A stretch of DNA of 64,000 nt from an uncultured candidate division Zixibacteria bacterium. Its GTDB lineage: Bacteria; Zixibacteria; MSB-5A5; GN15; FEB-12. Positions 18,787 to 30,045 of the stretch are shown piece after piece. The notes beneath the pieces were generated by a model. It saw nothing but the letters and a program-made list of their open reading frames with translations. It searched no databases and was not told where the DNA came from. Positions within the stretch are counted from its first letter, which is position 1, and each line of letters begins with the position of its first letter. The stretch is from the NCBI GenBank assembly GCA_963735035.1, contig CAVTJJ010000004.1, positions 448,001 to 512,000 on the forward strand, given 5' to 3'. The translations under genes and the position numbers were made by a program.

Positions 18787-21290
18787 ATGAAAGCAGTCGT
18801 CATGGCCGGCGGTTTCGGGACCCGACTCCGCCCGCTCACGATAAATACACCCAAACCGATGGTGCCGATCGGCAATGTCCCGATGATGGAACATGTGGTC
18901 GGGCTGCTGGCGCGCCACGGTCTCACCGATGTCACATCGCTGCTCTATTTTCATCCTGAGAGTATTCGCAACTATTTCGGTGACGGCTCCAGGGTCGGCG
19001 TCCAGATGGCTTACGAAAAGCCGAGCGATGATCTCGGTACCGCCGGGGCAGTTCGCTATGCGTTGGGCGAGCCCCGCGAACCGGTGCTGGTGATATCCGG
19101 CGACCTGGTGACCAATTTTGATCTGGCCGAAGCCATAAAATGGCACAAAGAAAAGAAGGCCGACGCCACTATCCTGCTCACTCGCGTAGAGAATCCGATC
19201 GCTTACGGCATTGTCATCACTGACGATGACGGCCGAATTGTCGAATTCCTCGAAAAGCCCACCTGGGGCGAGGCGTTCTCAGACACCATCAATACTGGCA
19301 TTTATATTCTCGAACCTCAGGCGGCGGCGCTGATCCCCAAGGACGAGAATTTTGATTTTTCCCAGAACCTGTTCCCGCTCATGCTCAAGAACGGCATGAA
19401 GCTTCACGGGAAGATTATGGACGGGTACTGGAAGGATGTGGGCAACACCGACGAATATTTCCGCGCCCACTTCGATCTCTTTGCCGGCGACCTGACTTTG
19501 CCGCTCAAGAACAGCAAGGAAGAAATTGACGGGGCCGTAGTCTACAAGGGTCGCAATGTTCGTCTCGGTCAGGATGTGAAATTCTCCGGCACGGTGCTTC
19601 TGGGTGATGACGTCAATGTGGGTGACGGCGCTCAACTCTACAACTGTGCCCTCGGCCAACGGGTAAGGGTGGGTTCGCGCAGTAGTATCAAAGACTCGGT
19701 AGTCTGGTCGGATACGGCCATAGGCAGCGAGTGCCGCTTCTCGCGCGCCCTGGTTTGTGCCGCAGTACAGGTCGGCGACAATGTTGAGCTGGCCGATCAC
19801 TCGATCGTTTCCGACGAATGCGTGGTCGGCGATTCCGCGACGGTTCGGGCTAACTGCAAGATCTGGCCGGGGAAGAAAGTCGACGAGGGCGCGATTGTGT
19901 CATCGTCGCTGGTCTGGGGCGACGCCTGGAACCGGGAGCTGTTCACCGATTCGAAAATAACCGGTCTGGCGCTGACCGAGATTACGCCGGAGATGGCGGT
20001 CAAGGTTGGGGCGGCGTTCGGCGCTACGCTCGGTCAGGGCAGCGCTGTCGTGACGAGCCGCGAAGTTTCCGACGTGGCCCAGTTGCTCCGTCGTTCCGTG
20101 ATGTCCGGCCTGATGGCGTCCGGGGTCAATGTTTATGACCTCGAGACTCTCCCCGTGCCGGTTGTGCGGTATGCACTGAAGAAAGGCGACTACGCTGCCG
20201 GCATGTATGTTCGCCACAACCCGGTCGACTATCGTTATCTCGATTTCATATTCTTCCACGGCTCGGCGCTCGACATGCCGACCTCTCAGCTCAAGAAAGT
20301 TGAGCGCAATTATTTCGGCGAAGACTTCAAGCGCGCTTCGATCAGCGAGATCGGTCACCTGGACTACCCGCAGCGGGTGTTGCGTGACTACCAGGCTGAT
20401 TTCATGGCCGAGGTTGATGTCGATATCATCCGCGAGGCCGGGTTCAAAATTGTGGTCGATTACGCCCACGGATCGTCGTCCGAGGTATTCCCCGATCTGT
20501 TCTCACGCCTGGGCATCTCCAGCACCGAGTTGAATTCCCACCCGAATCCGCTGAAATCGTCGGTGCCGCCCGAAGAGTCAGCCCGTGCTACCGTGCAGCT
20601 TGTCGGCCATCGTGCGCTCGCTCAACGCCGACGTGGGCTTCCGCGTCAATCCGGCCGCCGAGAAACTGACCGTGGTGGACGAAAACGGCCGCCCGTTGGA
20701 CGATCAGACGCTCTTGATGCTGGTAACTGAGCTTTATATTCGTACGCATCATCCCGAGAAGATCGCTGTTCCGGTGGCGGCGTCGATGGGGATCGAAGAG
20801 ATCGCCGACCGCTACGGAGTACAGGTCGTGCGGGTGACGAACGACCATCAGGCGATGATGAAAGTCCACATGTCGGGTGAGGTTGATTTTGTCGGCGGTA
20901 CGCGCGGCGGCTTTGTCATGTCGACGATTCCACAGCGGTGCCGACGCCATTTTCGCACTGGTGAAACTGCTTCAAATGATGGCGCAGACCCGGGGCCGCC
21001 TGGGACACCTTCGCACCAACTACGAACACCTGGTGCGGCAAACCGTCTCGGTACCCTGTCCCTGGTCGCGCAAGGGGACGGTCATGCGCCGACTGATCAC
21101 CGAGTCGGTGAACAAGCGACGGCAATTGATCGACGGCGTCCGCATTATCGAGGATGACGGCTGGGTGTTGATCGCGCCGGACCGGTTCAACGCGGCGTTT
21201 AATATCTTTGCCGAATCGAAGTCGCGTAAGGTGACCGAATCGCTTATCAGCAATTATAAGTCGGTGGTGGAGAACTGCCAGGAAGCGTAG
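18787..21290 (+). CDS. Mannose-1-phosphate guanylyltransferase / phosphomannomutase fusion (two +1 frameshifts, ~20600 and ~20924)
   Basis: MAGGFGTRLRPLT..PKP, EKP, hexapeptide repeats, then PGM/PMM-like domains ending CPWSRKGTVMR..DGVRI; three ORF fragments join with single-base corrections. Confidence 0.85.
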
Positions 21291-21316
21291 GGCAGGTCGC
21301 CGGCAAAAAGGCATGG

Positions 21317-21347
21317 GCCGCCGACCTCCCACGGTCGGCGGTTTCTT
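21317..21347 (+). terminator. Rho-independent terminator
   Basis: GCCGCCGACC-TCCCAC-GGTCGGCGGT-TTCTT. Confidence 0.6.
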
Positions 21348-21348
21348 G

Positions 21349-22426
21349 TTATTGTGTGCGAGGGGCTGGTGCAGGCGGTGCAAAGAACGATGTTCCCATG
21401 ACGCTGTCAAAACGCTGGCCGACGTCTCGATCCGTGAGATTTCGAGTGTTGCACCCACGCATCCGGATGGCGTTATCGGTGGTATTGAAGTAACATAGGC
21501 GAGTCCGCTCAGTATTGAAGCAGGTACCGAAGATCTGCAAGCCACTCGAGTCGTTTCGCGGCACCACCACGTCAAAGTCGTACTTGAGCGTATCGCCGGT
21601 AGCAAGATCGAACTGGAATGACGTGTCGCCGAGGCATCTGACATGATCGGTGAGTATTCTGATGCGAACATCCTTGCACATCGCATCCCCTCGAGCAAGG
21701 AGTCTCAGACGAACCACGCTGTCCGTGGCCACCATGTGAATCGGATTTATGTCCATGTCGAACATGTTCCTCGCCGTATCGATAACTCCCCCGTCCGCGG
21801 CATTGGGGATTGGCCCCGCCGAAATGTGGTTCCATACGGCCTCCTGATCTGCCCGGAACCTCGCATCTAGCTGCTTCATTGCCACAGCTCTCGGCCTCTG
21901 CTTCTGCCCGCGCTCGCGCCTGTGGGCTGAACCGAAAGTCGTACGGATAACATCTAACTGAGTCCTGGGTCTGCGACGAACGAGTAATGTGCCACCAGTG
22001 CGATCGCTTACGCCGGACCACCCTAACTAAGTTCAAACGCGCTTGTGTCAGACGCCGGAACGACGAGGTCGATGTAGTATGTGAGAGTATCTCCGACCTT
22101 ACCCGGAAAGGTCCAATTAGTGGCGAGGTGCATTGAAGCTTGTCCAGATTTGTCTAAGGTTACCGATGATGTCGCTGCATTCAACCTTGGGTACGACGGT
22201 GAGTTCAAGTCTCAATGGTCCCGGCCGAGTGGGCGAAGTGACAACCTGATCGCCGCTAGACTTCAAAGGGACCATTCTCAACCAACGGCGGAAATCCGCC
22301 GTCCGTTCCATATTGTGGAATGGTATCATCTGAGAATTCGACTACTGCCGAATCTGTAAGCACTTGCCCTACCAAGCCGCACACCGCCCATAGAGATGCT
22401 GACAAGAAGATCGCACGCCAGTTCAT
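21349..22426 (-). pseudogene. Fragmented exported-protein gene with an internally duplicated domain
   Basis: AGGAGG RBS + ATG 22426 (MNWRAIFLSASLWAVCGLVG signal peptide) stops after 56 aa; downstream fragments contain GDTLTYYIDLVVPASDTS and GDTLKYDFDVVVPRNDSS. Confidence 0.5.
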
Positions 22427-22714
22427 GATTCCCTCCTATGTCGTTCCCGTTTTCGATACCCCTGCATTACTCTGATCACTATGCGACCACACATCTGAAA
22501 CCCCGGTCTCCGGGCTATCATCCTTGTTCCTCAGATTCTGCCGCTAATTGGAGACAACCTTCCTGCCTTACTATACACCCCTTTCTGCAGCCTGCCAAGC
22601 GAATAACCGCGTCGTGGGCCTACAATAGTCTGACAAATCTCCCTATTGCCTCGGAGTATCTCGAATTGTATCTTCATCGATCCGGTAACTCGCCTCTTTT
22701 GAAGGATTGACGCA

Positions 22715-24114
22715 ATGGACTACAAAATTCGAACCAAAGTTTCCCGCATACTGATCGATGACGCCGTCCCGGCGGATACGGCTATTACTGTTCTTGGCTG
22801 GGTCAAGACGGTCAGGGTATCCAAGGCCGTGGCTTTTGTCGAGATCAACGACGGCTCCTGCATGGGGAATCTTCAGGCGGTTGTGGCCGATCCAGACAAA
22901 TACCCGGTGCTGGAAAAGTTGCTCACCGGGGCGTCGGTGCGGGTCAAAGGGAAATTGGTGGCGTCGCAGGGCCAGGGCCAGAAATACGAACTGGCGGTCG
23001 AGACCCTCGATCTGATCGGCGAGGCCGACCCGACCTATCCGCTTCAGAAGAAACGCCACACGTTTGAATATCTTCGCGAGATCGCCCATCTCCGGCCGCG
23101 CACCAATACGTTCGGGGCGGTCGGCCGGATGCAGCTCCAAGATCGCCTACGCCATTCACAAGTACTATCAGGAACGCGGGTTCTTCTATGTCCATACGCC
23201 GATGATTACGGCGTCGGACTGCGAAGGAGCCGGCGATATGTTCCGCGTGACCACGCTCGATCTGGACAACATCCCGCGCAAGGAAGGCAAGATCGATTGG
23301 GACGCTGATTTCTTCGCCTCGGAAACGTACCTGACCGTGTCGGGGCAGCTCGAGGGCGAGCTGATGGCGACTGCGCTGGGGGATATCTACACGTTCGGGC
23401 CGACTTTCCGCGCCGAGAACTCCAACACCAGTCGCCATGCCTCGGAGTTCTGGATGATCGAGCCGGAGATGGCCTGGGCGGAGATCGATGACAACATGGA
23501 TCTGGCCGAGGATTTCCTGAAATACCTGTTCCGGTTTGCGCTCGAAGAATGCGCCGACGACATGGCGTTCTTCAACCAGTGGGTGGACAAAGATGTCATT
23601 CGGACGCTCGAGAGCGTGGTCAATTCGCAGTTCGAGCGGATCACTTATACGCAGGCGATTGACATTCTCAACAAGTCGGGCGAGAAGTTTGAGTACCCGA
23701 CCGAATGGGGCTCAGATCTTCAGAGCGAACACGAACGCTTCCTGACCGAGAAGAAAATCGGGCGACCGGTAATAGTGTCCGACTATCCCGGAGAAGATCA
23801 AGTCGTTCTATATGAGAATGAACGAGGACGGCAAGACGGTCGCCGCGATGGATGTGCTGGTGCCGAAAGTGGGCGAGATCATCGGCGGGTCACAGCGCGA
23901 GGAACGCTACGACGTGCTCATGGACCGGATCAAGGCGAAGGGGATGACCGGCATGGAGAACTACTACTGGTATACTGATATTCGTCGCTGGGGTTCGGTG
24001 CCGCACGCCGGGTTCGGACTGGGGTTCGAACGCGCGATGATGTACATCACGGGCATTTCGAATATCCGCGATATCCTGACTTTCCCGCGAGTTCCGCGGT
24101 GGGCGAAGTTCTAG
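22715..24114 (+). CDS. asnS: Asparagine--tRNA ligase (two +1 frameshifts, ~23132 and ~23790)
   Basis: [75 protein letters not shown]. Confidence 0.93.
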
Positions 24115-24198
24115 GTTGGGTCTATGGTGGTTGGTGTACGTCCTCGTGCACCAACCTGTCTTGTAGGGCAGGTCCGCTTCGAACCTGCACTTCCACAC

Positions 24199-24308
24199 AA
24201 GAAAAGACGCCCGTTCTGGACGGGCGTCAAGGGTGCTCCGTAGAGCAAAACCTTCGAGACGGTTGTCTCTTACTGAGACTTGACTAACAACCGCCGCTTG
24301 AGTACATT
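24199..24308 (-). ncRNA. tracrRNA
   Basis: Minus strand reads AATGTACTCAAGCGGCGGTTGTTAGTCAAGTCTCAGT (anti-repeat, 24308-24272), then hairpins GAGAC-AACC-GTCTC and GCTC-TACG-GAGC, then terminator GACGCCCGT-CCAGA-ACGGGCGTC-TTTTCTT. Confidence 0.85.
24280..24308 (+). promoter_or_regulatory. Candidate cas9 promoter embedded in the anti-repeat
   Basis: TTGACT-N17-TACATT, 45 nt upstream of the cas9 ATG (RBS AAGGGGA). Confidence 0.55.
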
Positions 24309-24314
24309 ACTGGC

Positions 24315-24343
24315 TAAATACACTACGTTCGACCACCTGTCAA
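24315..24343 (-). promoter_or_regulatory. Candidate tracrRNA promoter
   Basis: TTGACA-N17-TATTTA on the minus strand; predicted +1 falls at the first base of the anti-repeat (24308). Confidence 0.55.
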
Positions 24344-24353
24344 GGGGAAATAC

Positions 24354-27300
24354 ATGAACCACGACAACGGTGAATCCAAACATCTGGGAATCGACCTTGG
24401 CCCAAATTCCATCGGGTGGGCGTTGGTTGAAGCGCCAGACAACAATACTCATCAGCTTGTCGTATCGGGTGTTCGCGTCTTTGAAGCGGGACTTGATAAA
24501 CTAGAATCCGACGGCAAAGGGGAATCCCGCAATGTCGCCCGACGTGCCGCGCGTCAGTCGAGGCGGGGAATTGAAAGAAGAGGCAGAAGGCTCACAAAAA
24601 TAGCCAACATTCTGCAGCGAGCGGGCCTTTTACCTGAAGGTGATCTGACCGACAGCGAGATCAGGCACAAGATATTGACGGAGCTTGATCTCAAGGTGGG
24701 CAATCCATACTCACTTCGTGCGCGTGCCCTTGATGAGAAATTGTCCAAACACGAACTCGGTCGCGCCTTGTTCCATTTGGCGCAAAGACGCGGCTTCCTC
24801 AGTAACCGCAAATCGGCGCCCAAGAAAGACGACGAGACTGGCAAAGTCAAAGCAGGTATAAGCCAGTTGAAGAAAGATATTGAAGCGTCTGGCTCGCGCA
24901 CACTCGGCGAGTATTTCAGTCGCATAGATCCGTTTCAACACCGGATACGGACGCACTACACGCATCGCTCGATGTATGAGCATGAGTTCAATCTCATCTG
25001 CGAGTCACAGAGTCGTTTTCATGCAGATGTATTGACAGATGATCTTAGAAAGATTCTTCACAAGGCGATCTTCTTTCAGCGGCCGCTCAAGAGCCAATCG
25101 CATCTGATTGGCAAATGCGAACTGGAACCGAAATACCGCCGCGCCCCTTGGGCGTTGCTCTGTGCCCAGCAATTCCGGTATCTGCAAACAATCAACAATC
25201 TGCGAGTGCTTGATGTCCCGAACCGCGAATTTCCGGAGTTGACCCCGGCCGAGCAATTCGCATTGGCAGAAAGGCTGGAATATCAGGAAGAGATGACTTT
25301 CGGTGCGGCGCGCAAGTTGTTGAACCTGCCCAAAACAAGCAAATTCAGCATTGAATTGGGCGGCGAGAAGAAGATCAAAGGCAACAGGACTGCGGCCTGC
25401 CTTGCCAAGATATTCGGCCTGGAGCGATGGCAAGCCATGACATCGGAAGAGCGCGACGCGGTGGTGGAAGACTGGCGAAGCATTGTCAAGGAAGAGACGC
25501 TCAAGAAACGCGGCATGAACAAATGGGGTCTTGACGAAGTCGCCGCAGAAGAACTGAGCCACCTGAATCTTGAAGAGGGCTATTGCTCAATGTCGCGTCA
25601 GGCTATCGCAAAACTACTGCCGCGACTTAGCTGTGGTGAAGCCCTGCAAACCGCTATCAAAACCGTGTACCCGGAACGCTTTGAACGCGTTGGTGCGGCT
25701 GTTGATACCCTGCCTCCAGTACGGGAATACTTCCCCTCGTTGCGGAACCCAATAGTGGAACGCGCTCTTACGGAATTGCGGCAAGTAGTGAACGCCATTG
25801 TTCGCGAGCATGGAAGACCCGCCGTGATTCGAGTTGAGCTGGCACGCGAACTGAAACAGCCGGCGAAGAGTCGCGAGGATACTATCAAGCGGATGCGCGC
25901 CAACGAAAAAGACCGGGCGAAGGCGGCGGAAAGAATACTTGAGGAAGCGAGAATCGCCAATCCGTCTCGGAGTGATATCCTCAGGGTTTTGTTGGCTGAG
26001 GAATGTGAGTGGACTTGCCCTTACACCGGCAGGCATTTCGGTATGACTGAAATCGTCGGAGATTCGCCGCAATTCGATATCGAGCATATCATCCCGCTCC
26101 ATAGGTGCCTTGACGACTCTTACATGAACAAGACCCTCTGCTATGCCGACGAAAACCGAAACCGCAAACGTGATCGAACTCCGTTTGAGGCCTACGCAGG
26201 CACCCCACAGTGGGATGAAGTTGTCGCACGGGTAGGAAAGTTCAAGGGCACGGCGGCAAGAGCCAAGCTGCAGCGCTTTCAGATGAAGCCTGAGGAGGTT
26301 GGGGCGTTGCTCGACAATTTTACTTCCCGGCAGTTAAACGATACCGCTTATGCCTCCCGAATGGCGAAGGAATATCTCGGACTTCTATTCGGCGGTCAGG
26401 ACAGCGACGGCATTGATGCCTCCAGTCATCGTCGCGTGCAGTGTACCAACGGCCAGGTCACAGCTTTTCTGCGCAATGTCTGGAGCCTCAACAGCATTCT
26501 TGGCGACGGACCCCGCAAGACCCGCGACGACCACCGCCATCACGCTGTTGACGCCGTCGTGGTCGCCCTGACCGATGCCGGCGCGGTCAAACGTCTGAGC
26601 GACGCGGCTTCTCGGGCCAAAATCGAGCGGCGGCGGCAGTTCGGCAAGGTGCCCCTACCGTGGGAGACATTCGATCAGGATGTTCGGCAGAGCATCGACA
26701 ACCTGGTCGTTTCGCACCGGCTCGATCACCGGGTAAGAGGTGCGTTTCACGAGCAGACTTTTTATGGTCGCCCAAGCCTCGGAGACGATGGCAAGCAGTA
26801 CGTACACACTAGGAAGCCGATTGAGAGAATCTCAGCCAAGGACATCAAAGACATTGCCGACAAGGCGGTGCGTGAATGTATCGAAAAGGCGCTCAGTGTC
26901 CTGGGGCAATCGAATCCTGCTGATGCTTTCAAAGACCCGGCCAGTCATCCGATCCTCAGCGGTGGAAACGACACCAGCAGGCCGATTCATCGGGTGCGAT
27001 TGAAGTCCTCTCTGAGGACTTTCGAGATCGGTTCCGGGCATCGTTTGAGGCATGTGGTACCAGACCGCAACCACCACATGGAGGTCGTGGAATTGCTCGA
27101 TGATAATGGGAACACCACCGGTTGGGAAGGGCATGTCGTTGATCTGTTTGAGGCGCGCCGTCGACTCGACCGGCGTGAACCGGTCATCAAGAAAGACCAC
27201 GGGTCGGGGAAATGCTTTCTATTTTCTCTGGCCAACGGCAACGTTATTGAATTGGACCAAGACGATGGTTCTCGTGGACTTTGCATCGTCCGAACCATCG

Positions 27301-27461
27301 AGACAAGTTCCAATATTAGGTGGGTTAGTATAAGAGATGCCCGGAAGTTGGCTGGTCGATCTAAAGCCGGTGAGACGGCTCGGCCGGATCCACTCCGAAA
27401 GAAGAACTGCTGCAAAGTAACAGTCGATCCGCTCGGCCGAGTCCGGCGAGCGCGTGATTAG
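24354..27461 (+). CDS. cas9: Compact type II-C Cas9 (1035 aa)
   Basis: RuvC-I LGIDLGPNSIGWA, Arg-rich bridge helix, HLAQRRGFLSNRK, RuvC-II RVELARE, HNH DIEHIIP..DDSYMNKTLC...N, RuvC-III HHAVDA. Confidence 0.96.
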   Translation: MNHDNGESKHLGIDLGPNSIGWALVEAPDNNTHQLVVSGVRVFEAGLDKLESDGKGESRNVARRAARQSRRGIERRGRRLTKIANILQRAGLLPEGDLTDSEIRHKILTELDLKVGNPYSLRARALDEKLSKHELGRALFHLAQRRGFLSNRKSAPKKDDETGKVKAGISQLKKDIEASGSRTLGEYFSRIDPFQHRIRTHYTHRSMYEHEFNLICESQSRFHADVLTDDLRKILHKAIFFQRPLKSQSHLIGKCELEPKYRRAPWALLCAQQFRYLQTINNLRVLDVPNREFPELTPAEQFALAERLEYQEEMTFGAARKLLNLPKTSKFSIELGGEKKIKGNRTAACLAKIFGLERWQAMTSEERDAVVEDWRSIVKEETLKKRGMNKWGLDEVAAEELSHLNLEEGYCSMSRQAIAKLLPRLSCGEALQTAIKTVYPERFERVGAAVDTLPPVREYFPSLRNPIVERALTELRQVVNAIVREHGRPAVIRVELARELKQPAKSREDTIKRMRANEKDRAKAAERILEEARIANPSRSDILRVLLAEECEWTCPYTGRHFGMTEIVGDSPQFDIEHIIPLHRCLDDSYMNKTLCYADENRNRKRDRTPFEAYAGTPQWDEVVARVGKFKGTAARAKLQRFQMKPEEVGALLDNFTSRQLNDTAYASRMAKEYLGLLFGGQDSDGIDASSHRRVQCTNGQVTAFLRNVWSLNSILGDGPRKTRDDHRHHAVDAVVVALTDAGAVKRLSDAASRAKIERRRQFGKVPLPWETFDQDVRQSIDNLVVSHRLDHRVRGAFHEQTFYGRPSLGDDGKQYVHTRKPIERISAKDIKDIADKAVRECIEKALSVLGQSNPADAFKDPASHPILSGGNDTSRPIHRVRLKSSLRTFEIGSGHRLRHVVPDRNHHMEVVELLDDNGNTTGWEGHVVDLFEARRRLDRREPVIKKDHGSGKCFLFSLANGNVIELDQDDGSRGLCIVRTIETSSNIRWVSIRDARKLAGRSKAGETARPDPLRKKNCCKVTVDPLGRVRRARD

Positions 27462-27476
27462 CCTGCCCAAACCATA

Positions 27477-27967
27477 AATGTACTCAAGCGGCGGTTCGTG
27501 TCAAGCCCCAGCTGTCTCTACCTTCTCACGCCGTGGGGCGTAAATGTACTCAAGCGGCGGTTAGCTGTCAAGTCCCAGCTGGACTACGTATTGATTGCCC
27601 TGTTGCTGGAATGTACTCAAGCGGCGGTTAGTGTCAAGTCCCAGCGCCGTGGGGCGTACAGGCGCAATCGTCAAAATGTACTCAAGCGGCGGTTCGCGTC
27701 AAGTCCCAGCTCAGTACGTATTCCATGATTAAGTCCTTTCAATGTACTCAAGCGGCGGTTCGCATCAAGTCCCAGCGCAGTCGGTGGGCTGATTCGGTAT
27801 CTACCAATGTACTCAAGCGGCGGTTCACGTCAAGTCCCAGCTCACCGTTCACCTGTCCGCTACCTAGTCGAATGTACTCAAGCGGCGGTTTGCGTCAAGT
27901 CCAGCCGACTTGAAGGGATCAGTTATGACCAACGCAATGTACTCAAGCGGCGGTTCGCGTCAAGTCC
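27477..27967 (-). CRISPR. CRISPR array: 8 repeats (35-37 nt, last truncated), 7 spacers (29-30 nt)
   Basis: Plus-strand consensus AATGTACTCAAGCGGCGGTTCGCGTCAAGTCCCAGC starting at 27477, 27543, 27610, 27675, 27741, 27806, 27871, 27936; orientation inferred from tracrRNA complementarity. Confidence 0.95.
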
Positions 27968-28068
27968 GCCTGACCTACGATTATCCCATTGAACCGCTTC
28001 GCTTCAGCCTCTTTTGGCCCCCTCAAACAATTCTAAATCCTACCCCTCGCTTTGCCGATATAAGAGAC

Positions 28069-28869
28069 ATGGGCTACAAGTCTGACTTACGCCAGGTCCT
28101 GATTGCTGTCTTCGGGCTCGCTCTGAGCGCGCTCGTGATCGGCTGCAATGGCGCGCCGACCAAGAGCAGCAACGAGGACAAATACCGCGTCGACGGTCTG
28201 GTTGTACAGAACCTGAACGTCGACACGGCGTTCATTGCCGCCCGATTCGCCCGCAACGACACCTCGATTACCAACGCCTCGATCAAACTCGCCGGTACGC
28301 CTCTGGGCTATTTCGCGTCGCTTCGAGGCATCCTCGCGGCCTATCAGTCCTGGCTGAAACCGGCAGATTCGCTGGCGGGATCAAGTGTCTATCTTCGTGT
28401 CGCCGACGCCAGTCGCTTCACTGATAGTCTGCCGCTGGGTATCGTAGGCACTTTCGGCCTGACCGACAACTTCCAGCCGCCCAACCATCATCTCCAGGGT
28501 ATGACTAATTATGTCTCTCTGGAATGGACCGCGGCCGCCAACGCGGATAGCTACGTGCTAGCCGCCGTCAAGACGTCACTGGTCGGCACCGGAGCAGGCT
28601 ACAGCGCCCAGGTGACAGCGACCGGCGTGGCCGGAACTATTCCCGCGGATGCCTTCATGAATCCAAGCACCAACCTTCCCGACACCGGGCTTTACAATAT
28701 CTATGTATATGCCTTCAACGACGCCCCCGACTCGGCTTTAGCGACCAAACTCCTGCCGGTGCCGTGGCCAATTCAGGTGACCGAGAATATCGCTCGAACG
28801 TCTCTGAAGGGTCGGTTCGGGTCTATCACCGTGGCGCTCAAGGACACGGTTCGGGTGCTCGCTCAGTAG
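28069..28869 (+). CDS. Hypothetical lipoprotein
   Basis: MGYKSDLRQVLIAVFGLALSALVIGC lipobox. Confidence 0.65.
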   Translation: MGYKSDLRQVLIAVFGLALSALVIGCNGAPTKSSNEDKYRVDGLVVQNLNVDTAFIAARFARNDTSITNASIKLAGTPLGYFASLRGILAAYQSWLKPADSLAGSSVYLRVADASRFTDSLPLGIVGTFGLTDNFQPPNHHLQGMTNYVSLEWTAAANADSYVLAAVKTSLVGTGAGYSAQVTATGVAGTIPADAFMNPSTNLPDTGLYNIYVYAFNDAPDSALATKLLPVPWPIQVTENIARTSLKGRFGSITVALKDTVRVLAQ

Positions 28870-29109
28870 CTTCCAGGCTTCAGGGCTTATTGGAAGAAGT
28901 CTCCTCAAGTCACTTTCATGCATTTGCTATATCAGCCGGCAGATGTGGGCATCTGCCGGGCACCTGGTGAGAATCGCTGTCGGGCAGATGTGGGCCCGCC
29001 GCGGCGGGCCGGGCACTAGTCAGGCATCTGCAAGTCATCTGCCGGGCGCTAGTTCTTCCCAATCCGCATTTTAGTTGCCCGTACGGATCGTCACCGATAG
29101 GTTCGTTTC

Positions 29110-30045
29110 ATGGCGGACATGAACGAACTTATCAGCCGATTACGGCAGCTCGATACCGAAAAGGTCAATCCGAACACGGTCGATATCGATCGACTGTCAC
29201 CCGTCGAAATCGCGCGTAAGATAAATGCCGAGGACAAGACGGTTGCAACTGTAGTCGAAGCTGCTCTTGAGCCGTTAGCGAGTGCGGCGCAAGTCTTTGC
29301 CGAAACCCTCAAGAACGGCAAGCGAGTCTTCTATGTCGGCGCGGGGACTTCCGGGCGGTTGGGGGTGCTCGACGCCGCCGAATGTCCGCCGACTTTCGGT
29401 ACCGATCCCAAACAGATAATAGGCTTGATCTCGGGCGGGTACGAGACCTTGATCCTCTCCAAAGAAGGGGTTGAAGACGATGTTCGAGCGGCTGTTGTGG
29501 ACCTTCAGTCTCACCATCTGGCTACGGGCGATTTCGTGATCGGGCTGGCTGCCTCCACTCGAACCCCGTACACGCTTTCGGCTTTGCGATACGCCAAGAC
29601 CTGTGGCTGCCGGACCGCGTTCATCGTATGCAATCTCGCGGGTGGAATAGAAATCAGACCGGACATACTTATAGAATTGCCGGTGGGACCGGAAGCCATT
29701 ACCGGTTCGACTCGTATGAAATCGGGCACGGCCGAGAAGATGGCGCTGAACATCATTTCTACCACCGCCATGGTGCTCTTGGGGAAGACCTACGGAAATC
29801 TGATGGTTGATCTTCAGGCGCGCTCCGAAAAGCTGGCGGCAAGATCACGCAAGATTCTTATCGAGCTGCTGCAAGTCGATCTGCCCAAGGCCGAGGAACT
29901 GCTGCAGCTTTCCGGTGGATCGGTCAAACTGGCGATAGTTATGCACTGGCAGAAATGCGACCGGGCCGAAGCGGAGAAGCGCCTGGCGCAAGCGGGGGGG
30001 TTCATTTCGCGATTGACCAAAGTGCCGCCGGCACAATTGCCCTGA
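29110..30045 (+). CDS. murQ: N-acetylmuramic acid 6-phosphate etherase
   Basis: GAGTSGRLGVLDAAECPPTFG, GPEAITGSTRMKSGTA.K, GNLMVD. Confidence 0.93.
   Translation: MADMNELISRLRQLDTEKVNPNTVDIDRLSPVEIARKINAEDKTVATVVEAALEPLASAAQVFAETLKNGKRVFYVGAGTSGRLGVLDAAECPPTFGTDPKQIIGLISGGYETLILSKEGVEDDVRAAVVDLQSHHLATGDFVIGLAASTRTPYTLSALRYAKTCGCRTAFIVCNLAGGIEIRPDILIELPVGPEAITGSTRMKSGTAEKMALNIISTTAMVLLGKTYGNLMVDLQARSEKLAARSRKILIELLQVDLPKAEELLQLSGGSVKLAIVMHWQKCDRAEAEKRLAQAGGFISRLTKVPPAQLP

Follow-up and report, generated by a model that had tools for sequence, protein, structure and literature searches.

Overlapping spacers in a type II-C-like CRISPR array of an uncultured Zixibacteria bacterium are real but do not give a readable PAM

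Introduction

In the type II-C CRISPR systems of Neisseria meningitidis and C. jejuni, the repeats contain promoters, which allows crRNA transcripts to begin within spacers, as described in an excerpt of PMC5965381, which for N. meningitidis summarises Zhang et al. (2013). The PAM of Nme1Cas9 is given as N4GATT in excerpts of PMC9433092 (Wei et al., 2022), where II-C orthologs that are 59.6–70.4% identical to Nme1Cas9 are described as recognising many different PAMs.

Here we describe a locus of this kind in a window of 64,000 nucleotides, the whole stretch of DNA that we analysed and to which all positions below refer. The source is an uncultured Zixibacteria bacterium with a 3.6 Mb genome in 6 contigs, 96.9% complete. 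An earlier note on the window had proposed that overlapping spacers at 27513–27740 expose the 3′ flanks of each other's protospacers, and that these flanks reveal a PAM whose positions 6 and 7 are A (N5AA). The segment's limits are the first base of spacer 1 and the last base of spacer 4. We find it probable that the spacers in it are the four nearest to cas9 in a type II-C-like array without adaptation genes, and that their overlaps are real and the PAM unreadable from them.

Results

A compact Cas9 beside an array without adaptation genes

The core of the locus is a cas9 gene followed almost immediately by a CRISPR array:

24354–27461, + strand: cas9, 1035 aa in an uninterrupted frame (domain matches, catalytic motifs)
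27462–27476: remnant of 15 nt that separates the first repeat from the cas9 stop
27477–27971, − strand (crRNA sense): CRISPR array, 8 repeats and 7 spacers
27477, 27543 (37 nt), 27610, 27675, 27741, 27806, 27871 (35 nt), 27936: repeat starts

As in other type II systems, the encoded protein is a Cas9 with RuvC and HNH nuclease domains. A family search matched RuvC_III (1.4e-22), HNH_4 (1.9e-15) and Cas9_a, the alpha-helical lobe (2.5e-8), and the catalytic motifs GIDLG (RuvC-I), DIEHIIP (HNH) and HHAVDA (RuvC-III) are present. The best matches among solved structures are chains of 1082–1092 aa (E 1e-77); these include 6jdq and neighbouring PDB chains, which we take to be Nme Cas9. By these matches the window Cas9 appears most like the II-C Cas9 structures. 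The alignment to the solved chains spans Cas9 residues ~10–825 only, and thus the PAM-interacting end (about 830–1035) is without a characterised sequence relative.

The nearest named relatives of the window Cas9 are proteins of Zixibacteria MAGs. The only close one is protein P0002 (77% identical, 1035 aa) of a congener that we call G097, annotated in its NCBI MAG as 'type II CRISPR RNA-guided endonuclease Cas9'; the next relative is 62% identical. Identity between the G097 and window proteins in the PAM-interacting region is 53% (831–900), 67% (901–970) and 82% (971–1035). Because this region is only 53–82% identical, the PAM of G097 need not match that of the window Cas9, and transferring a PAM from relatives would be unsafe.

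The operon of only cas9, cas1 and cas2, lacking csn2 and cas4, that marks II-C systems is absent from the window, and family searches for Cas1 and Cas2 found no match anywhere in the 96.9%-complete, 6-contig genome, nor was a second CRISPR array found in it. In G097 the order is cas9, cas1, cas2, a leader of ~60 nt and the array, so that 1341 nt (cas1, cas2, leader) separate the cas9 stop from the array, compared to 15 nt in the window. The 15-nt remnant resembles part of the G097 leader (GCC[C]AAACC ... ATA), and the deletion therefore apparently starts directly behind cas9 and reaches into the leader. Judged by its sequence, the locus is evidently a II-C derivative whose adaptation module has been lost. 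The G097 array, which lies on two contig pieces, has 29 identical repeats (19 + 10) and 27 spacers, with a repeat near-identical to that of the window. None of the G097 spacers overlaps another G097 spacer or any window spacer.

Two neighbouring genes bear on how the assembly is to be read or abut the array. An asparaginyl/aspartyl-tRNA-synthetase-like (asnS-like) gene at 22715–24114 (+), with an OB fold and a class II core, is spread over three overlapping ORFs in three frames, and one of its frame breaks falls at a CCC run near 23790. Assembly indel errors are a more likely cause of the split than decay to a pseudogene of an essential enzyme. With indel errors probable in this gene, miscalls may also underlie the repeats of 35 and 37 nt and the spacer of 29 nt in the array. 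On the other side, a 319-aa ORF at 27910–28869 (+) begins within the array; an ATG near 28070 is its likelier start, and it has no Pfam match.

crRNAs are predicted to be made from the minus strand

A tracrRNA gene lies beside cas9, on the opposite strand:

~24311–24199, − strand: tracrRNA (anti-repeat, cofold, terminator)
about 24308–24273, − strand: anti-repeat, at the 5′ end of the tracrRNA
24228–24206, − strand: GC-rich terminator hairpin of the tracrRNA, followed by a T-run

The tracrRNA begins with an anti-repeat complementary to the repeat, as expected for type II, and continues through two small hairpins to the terminator hairpin and T-run. The tracrRNA coordinates given in the earlier note are sound. 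The anti-repeat has the sense of the + strand repeat. When cofolded with the minus-strand copy of each repeat, the tracrRNA forms the same duplex with all eight, consisting of 13 bp, a 3 x 4 internal loop and 20 bp, with energies between -85.6 and -95.0 kcal/mol. An Rfam scan of 20000–30000 matched no family.

On the minus strand, seven of the eight repeats carry a sigma-70-like promoter, TTGAC[A/G] and TACATT separated by 16–17 nt, as judged by consensus matching, and the region has 12 such promoter-like sites against 1.9 expected. The locus thus shows the repeat-embedded promoters of II-C systems, as consensus matches, and a crRNA sense opposite to cas9. The strand of the tracrRNA, the duplexes formed by 8/8 repeats and the promoters in 7/8 uphold the premise of the earlier note that crRNAs are made from the minus strand. 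Driven by these repeat promoters, the crRNAs would start within spacers, as in Neisseria.

A further consensus match, TTGACT and TACATT 17 nt apart, lies at 24280–24308 (+), opposite the anti-repeat strand and aimed at cas9. It has the same TTGAC-17-TACATT form as the repeats, and the start of cas9 is 46 nt downstream. By its sequence, a repeat-derived promoter may drive cas9 transcription.

Repeats differ mainly in the internal loop of the duplex

The repeats (R1 to R8) are 36 nt long apart from one of 37 nt, one of 35 nt and the last, which has a degenerate outer end; spacers are 29–30 nt. With three exceptions, the differences among R1–R7 sit in three internal-loop positions that face a 4-nt bulge of the tracrRNA, and four of these differences are single transitions within a CGCG. 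Two of the exceptions are in the stems, A7G in R1 and C13U in R5, and each turns a Watson-Crick pair into a G.U pair; the third is the loss of one nucleotide in R7. In R8, columns 1–4 at the outer end are degenerate as well. The final 20 nt of the repeat are identical in all eight copies, and the CpGs of the 20-bp stem are unchanged. Across 18 related array pieces from other Zixibacteria genomes, most repeat differences between species fall at the same loop positions. Systematic base-calling errors were dropped as a source of the variants, which differ from one another while their context is identical in all repeats.

From this pattern we infer an old array that is unable to grow and is still selected for pairing with its tracrRNA. 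As the repeats look constrained by this pairing, the sgRNA suggested in the earlier note, built from the repeat and the 24199–24308 tracrRNA (minus strand), is a sound design.

Two pairs of spacers overlap

The seven spacers, numbered from the cas9-proximal end, are as follows:

27513–27542, − strand: spacer 1, 30 nt
27580–27609, − strand: spacer 2, 30 nt
27646–27674, − strand: spacer 3, 29 nt, or 30 nt with base 27645 included
27711–27740, − strand: spacer 4, 30 nt
27777–27805, − strand: spacer 5
27842–27870, − strand: spacer 6
27906–27935, − strand: spacer 7

Spacers 1 and 3 share 13/13 nt on the same strand, with the last 13 nt of spacer 3 in crRNA sense equal to the first 13 of spacer 1 (+ strand 27530–27542 in spacer 1, 27646–27658 in spacer 3). 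Spacers 2 and 4 overlap on opposite strands, their PAM-proximal 15 nt being reverse complements at 13/15 positions (27580–27594 in spacer 2). Spacers 5, 6 and 7 have no overlaps with the other spacers of the array and hence yield no flanks.

We asked how often such similarities would arise by chance. A 13-nt substring common to any two of the seven spacers appeared in 1/3000 composition-preserving shuffles. Scored end to end, the overlaps reach 7.61 (3/1) and 5.82 (4/2), the next pair scores 3.25, and none of 1500 shuffles reached even 5.82. The local score alone for spacers 2 and 4 is borderline, being reached by 7.4% of shuffles, because TACGTA in the overlap is a palindrome.

This borderline score, together with the assembly indel errors that are likely nearby, is what favours reading the similarities as chance, or as recombination or assembly artefacts within the array that carry no target information. 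Against such a reading stand the shuffles, which never matched either end-to-end score and only once gave a 13-nt substring, and the two mismatches between spacers 2 and 4: in an ORF preceded by AAGGA, one affects the third base of a codon and the other a first base whose change is synonymous. Similar cases also occur in other Zixibacteria arrays, with intra-array overlaps in 3/18 related pieces (two pairs in one of them) and a duplicated spacer in a fourth. We therefore consider it very improbable that the similarities are artefacts. The proposal that overlapping spacers expose 3′ flanks stands insofar as both pairs are real; the flanks they expose are too few and too ambiguous to give a PAM.

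In the related arrays, spacers 10 and 17 of L028 (genome G138) overlap on the same strand at 19/20 positions. In L020 (G277), spacers 2 and 4 are convergent at 18/20, and spacers 7 and 10 are full-length reverse complements at 24/30. Spacers 7 and 8 of L011 (G098) are an exact duplicate. Flanks obtained from two of these other Zixibacteria arrays are GGCAAATAAT; CAGCACATCG and CAACATAAAC. The pair from G277 has C1 A2 C4 A5 A7 in common.

For the window array, spacers 1 and 3 derive from protospacers 16 nt apart on one strand, and spacers 2 and 4 from opposite strands of one site, in two variants of a gene start. We also considered whether Cas9 cleavage at the spacer 3 site had left the end from which spacer 1 was taken. 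This idea was dropped, since the cut would be expected to fall inside the protospacer of spacer 1.

Spacers 2 and 4 appear to sample two variants of a gene start

In crRNA sense, spacer 4 contains AAGGA, which is Shine-Dalgarno-like, then 7 nt, then ATG GAA TAC GTA CTG (MEYVL). Spacer 2 reads, on the + strand, (A)TG GAC TAC GTA TTG ATT GCC CTG TTG CTG G, which encodes DYVLIALLL. The combined peptide at this site is M[D/E]YVLIALLL. The two mismatches between the spacers are GAA/GAC, a third-position change between Glu and Asp, and CTG/TTG, both Leu. Such silent or conservative changes are as expected of two natural variants of one gene, and the third-position Glu/Asp and synonymous Leu changes support the earlier view that spacers 2 and 4 come from two alleles. 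For this pair the observation is on firmer ground than the earlier note had means to tell.

If spacers formerly entered at the cas-proximal end, spacers 1 and 2 would be younger than 3 and 4. The variant from which spacer 2 came differs twice from the spacer 4 target, both times in its PAM-proximal half, and spacer 2 may thus record an escape variant.

The exposed flanks do not establish a PAM

We next rederived the flank of each spacer from its overlapping partner. Given a 29-nt spacer 3, its 3′ flank is read directly from spacer 1 as GTGAGAAG followed by GTAGAGACA, where GTGAGAAG is the reverse complement of 27522–27529, as had been claimed. The flank of spacer 2, TGATTAAG, was likewise reproduced from the spacer 4 allele (+ strand 27726–27733), and that of spacer 4, TTGCCCTG, from spacer 2 (27595–27602), where it lies within Ile-Ala-Leu codons. 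These last two flanks are borrowed from the other variant, which differs at 2/15 shared positions. As reported before, the spacer 4 flank has CT at positions 6–7 and misfits the motif, and the repeat flank GCTGGGAC is without AA at these positions.

The remaining flank on which the N5AA proposal drew, that of spacer 1, did not hold up. The sequence given for it, CCAGCAAC, is merely the start of spacer 2, and nothing indicates that the two protospacers abut. By hand translation, all three + strand frames are open in the spacer 1/3 stretch, so that an open frame across the supposed junction proves nothing.

The boundary of spacer 3 is itself ambiguous. Beyond the overlap the target continues with a G, and the repeat likewise begins with G (a 14-nt match). 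Because of this shared G, spacer 3 may be 30 nt long beside a 35-nt repeat, in which case its flank is TGAGAAGG. In the 29-nt register, the flanks of spacers 3 and 2 share A6, A7 and G8 and nothing at positions 1–5, and the spacer 4 flank shares only G8 with them. In the shifted register, compared by hand, AA moves to positions 5–6, and the flanks of spacers 3 and 2 share T1 G2 A3 A6 G8.

The earlier reading, that the flanks show a distal PAM with A at 6 and 7 (N5AA, perhaps N5AAG), thus keeps the flanks of spacers 3 and 2, the former in one register only, so that 2/3 usable array-derived flanks carry A at these positions; it loses the flank of spacer 1, and the motif does not rise above chance. 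In simulations, three random 8-mers had an adjacent invariant pair in 2.8% of cases, and 10% had one in some three of four flanks. Two random 8-mers shared three adjacent positions in 7.6% of cases, or 14.7% over both registers. With chance agreement of 7.6%–14.7% and the register ambiguity, the N5AA motif is not established.

What speaks for N5AA is that the flanks of spacers 3 and 2 share A6, A7 and G8, with the consequence that any strict PAM base would lie at 6–8 if both flanks are PAM-bearing in the 29-nt register, and that the repeat flank lacks the motif. A distal position would also suit the statement, in excerpts of PMC9433092, that II-C PAMs begin at position 5 and can have a length of 5–11 bp. 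On this reading the spacer 4 flank misfits because it was read from the other allele, which may have escaped by losing its PAM; the two differences between the spacer 2 allele and the spacer 4 target, which lie in the PAM-proximal half of the latter, are escape-like. However, the supporting flanks are only two, one of them borrowed, and their agreement is lost with a 30-nt spacer 3. The CT of the spacer 4 flank lies in Ala-Leu codons of a hydrophobic segment, where AA would need a Lys or Asn codon, and the flank of spacer 1 is an assumption. The flanks from other Zixibacteria arrays, GGCAAATAAT, CAGCACATCG and CAACATAAAC, are A-rich but without AA at 6–7, although those Cas9s may well differ. 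We regard N5AA as displayed by the flanks as a doubtful reading, and are similarly tentative about A at positions 6–7 being part of the true PAM.

Alternatively, the PAM may be of another kind: TGA at 1–3 (with a 30-nt spacer 3), a distal motif so degenerate that G8 alone is shared, or a motif absent from every flank here, the borrowed flanks differing in the true targets. The register ambiguity favours these options, since the shifted flanks share T1, G2, A3, A6 and G8, and G8 is the sole base common to all three usable flanks. On the other hand, these options fare no better statistically than N5AA, TGA is at odds with the TTG found at 1–3 in the flank of spacer 4, and it would be unusual for a PAM to consist of one base at position 8. 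Close II-C Cas9s differ widely in PAM, which is often degenerate, as noted in excerpts of PMC9433092. We put the chances that the PAM is one of these others at slightly short of even. We conclude that a distal N5AA(G) PAM is possible, but that the array allows no confident reading of it.

Searches for protospacers

In all collections searched, no true protospacer was found for the 7/7 window spacers or for 18 G097 spacers. In the window's own genome, blastn-short returned nothing past 14 exact or 20/22 nt. The window spacers matched GenBank phages only at E >= 0.5 and matched no plasmid. Among 285 Zixibacteria genomes, searched with the window array and with two candidates scored per genome, a setting that may mask matches where a genome has an array of its own, the best match to a spacer alone was 23/30 (G122). 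The first 18 G097 spacers, searched against the same 285 genomes with two candidates per genome and against phages, gave repeat matches only, or none.

Exact-word searches in larger collections gave a similar picture. In IMG/VR, one exact 18-mer for each of the seven spacers produced three matches that extend merely to 24/46, 21/30 and 23/30, and none of the three records matched a second spacer. A 22-mer of spacer 3 had no match in metagenome contigs. A 20-mer of spacer 4 had five there, limited to the Shine-Dalgarno/ATG 20-mer (21–23/30), and a 20-mer of spacer 2 had nine in GTDB genome contigs of unrelated phyla, limited to the Leu/Ile/Ala-rich 20-mer (21–26/30). The word matches of spacers 2 and 4 are evidently not due to homology: Leu/Ile/Ala-rich helices are common, and so is the Shine-Dalgarno/ATG context.

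Finally, we searched with a codon-degenerate pattern of spacer 2. It matched nothing in viral sequences and, in the window's own genome, only spacer 2 itself; across the 285 genomes it matched 17 at 1–2 mismatches besides the window's own match. Nine of these 17 are the 9/9 genomes of Zixibacteria family f13. One match, L063 (G205:C11, 1491–2132), is in an ORF that starts MNWIDYVLIALLL and contains DYVLIALLL; this start is presumably CvpA-like. We rejected this ORF as the target of spacer 2, its DNA not being close enough, and also the window genome's own cvpA, which is unrelated to the spacers at the DNA level.

Discussion

Had the array given a PAM, both the guide RNA and the PAM of an uncultivated compact Cas9 of 1035 aa would have been available without any experiment, and the overlap approach, if workable, could be used on many metagenomic Cas9 loci whose spacers have no matches. 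The present locus marks the limits of this approach: three flanks, an ambiguous boundary and borrowed alleles leave the motif unfixed.

A bolder view is that the array is a fossil of an arms race that is still in use, in which an escape variant was re-captured, old spacers have been under long-term selection, the PAM is indeed N5AAG and the flank of spacer 4 carries a mutation. Four of the seven spacers come from two short sites, one of them sampled twice on opposite strands, as this scenario would have it. If it were true, the repeats would have drifted after the loss of cas1 and cas2 only where the duplex tolerates it (internal loop, G.U pairs), and a Cas9 with old spacers would possibly serve a role besides adaptive immunity. 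We think this scenario unlikely as a whole, and keep to the reading of a II-C-like array with real overlaps and an unreadable PAM.

As in standard PAM inference, the bases considered here lie 3′ of the protospacer on the crRNA-sense strand. Unlike in standard inference, sister spacers take the place of target genomes as the source of the flanks, which number only three, with two taken from a variant allele. Among the listed papers on overlapping spacers and Cas9 PAMs, as represented by their titles and the starts of their abstracts, we found none that used flanks from sister spacers, and our literature search on Zixibacteria Cas9 PAMs returned no paper.

Compared to the II-C system of N. meningitidis, the window is without cas1 and cas2, its repeats have drifted apart, and none of its flanks displays the N4GATT of Nme1. 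The three-gene operon cas9-cas1-cas2 of N. meningitidis is shared by the congener G097. With its compact Cas9, a tracrRNA beside cas9, 36-nt repeats and spacers of ~30 nt, the window locus is like that of Nme1Cas9, and the promoter found in each repeat there has its counterpart, as consensus matches, in 7/8 repeats here.
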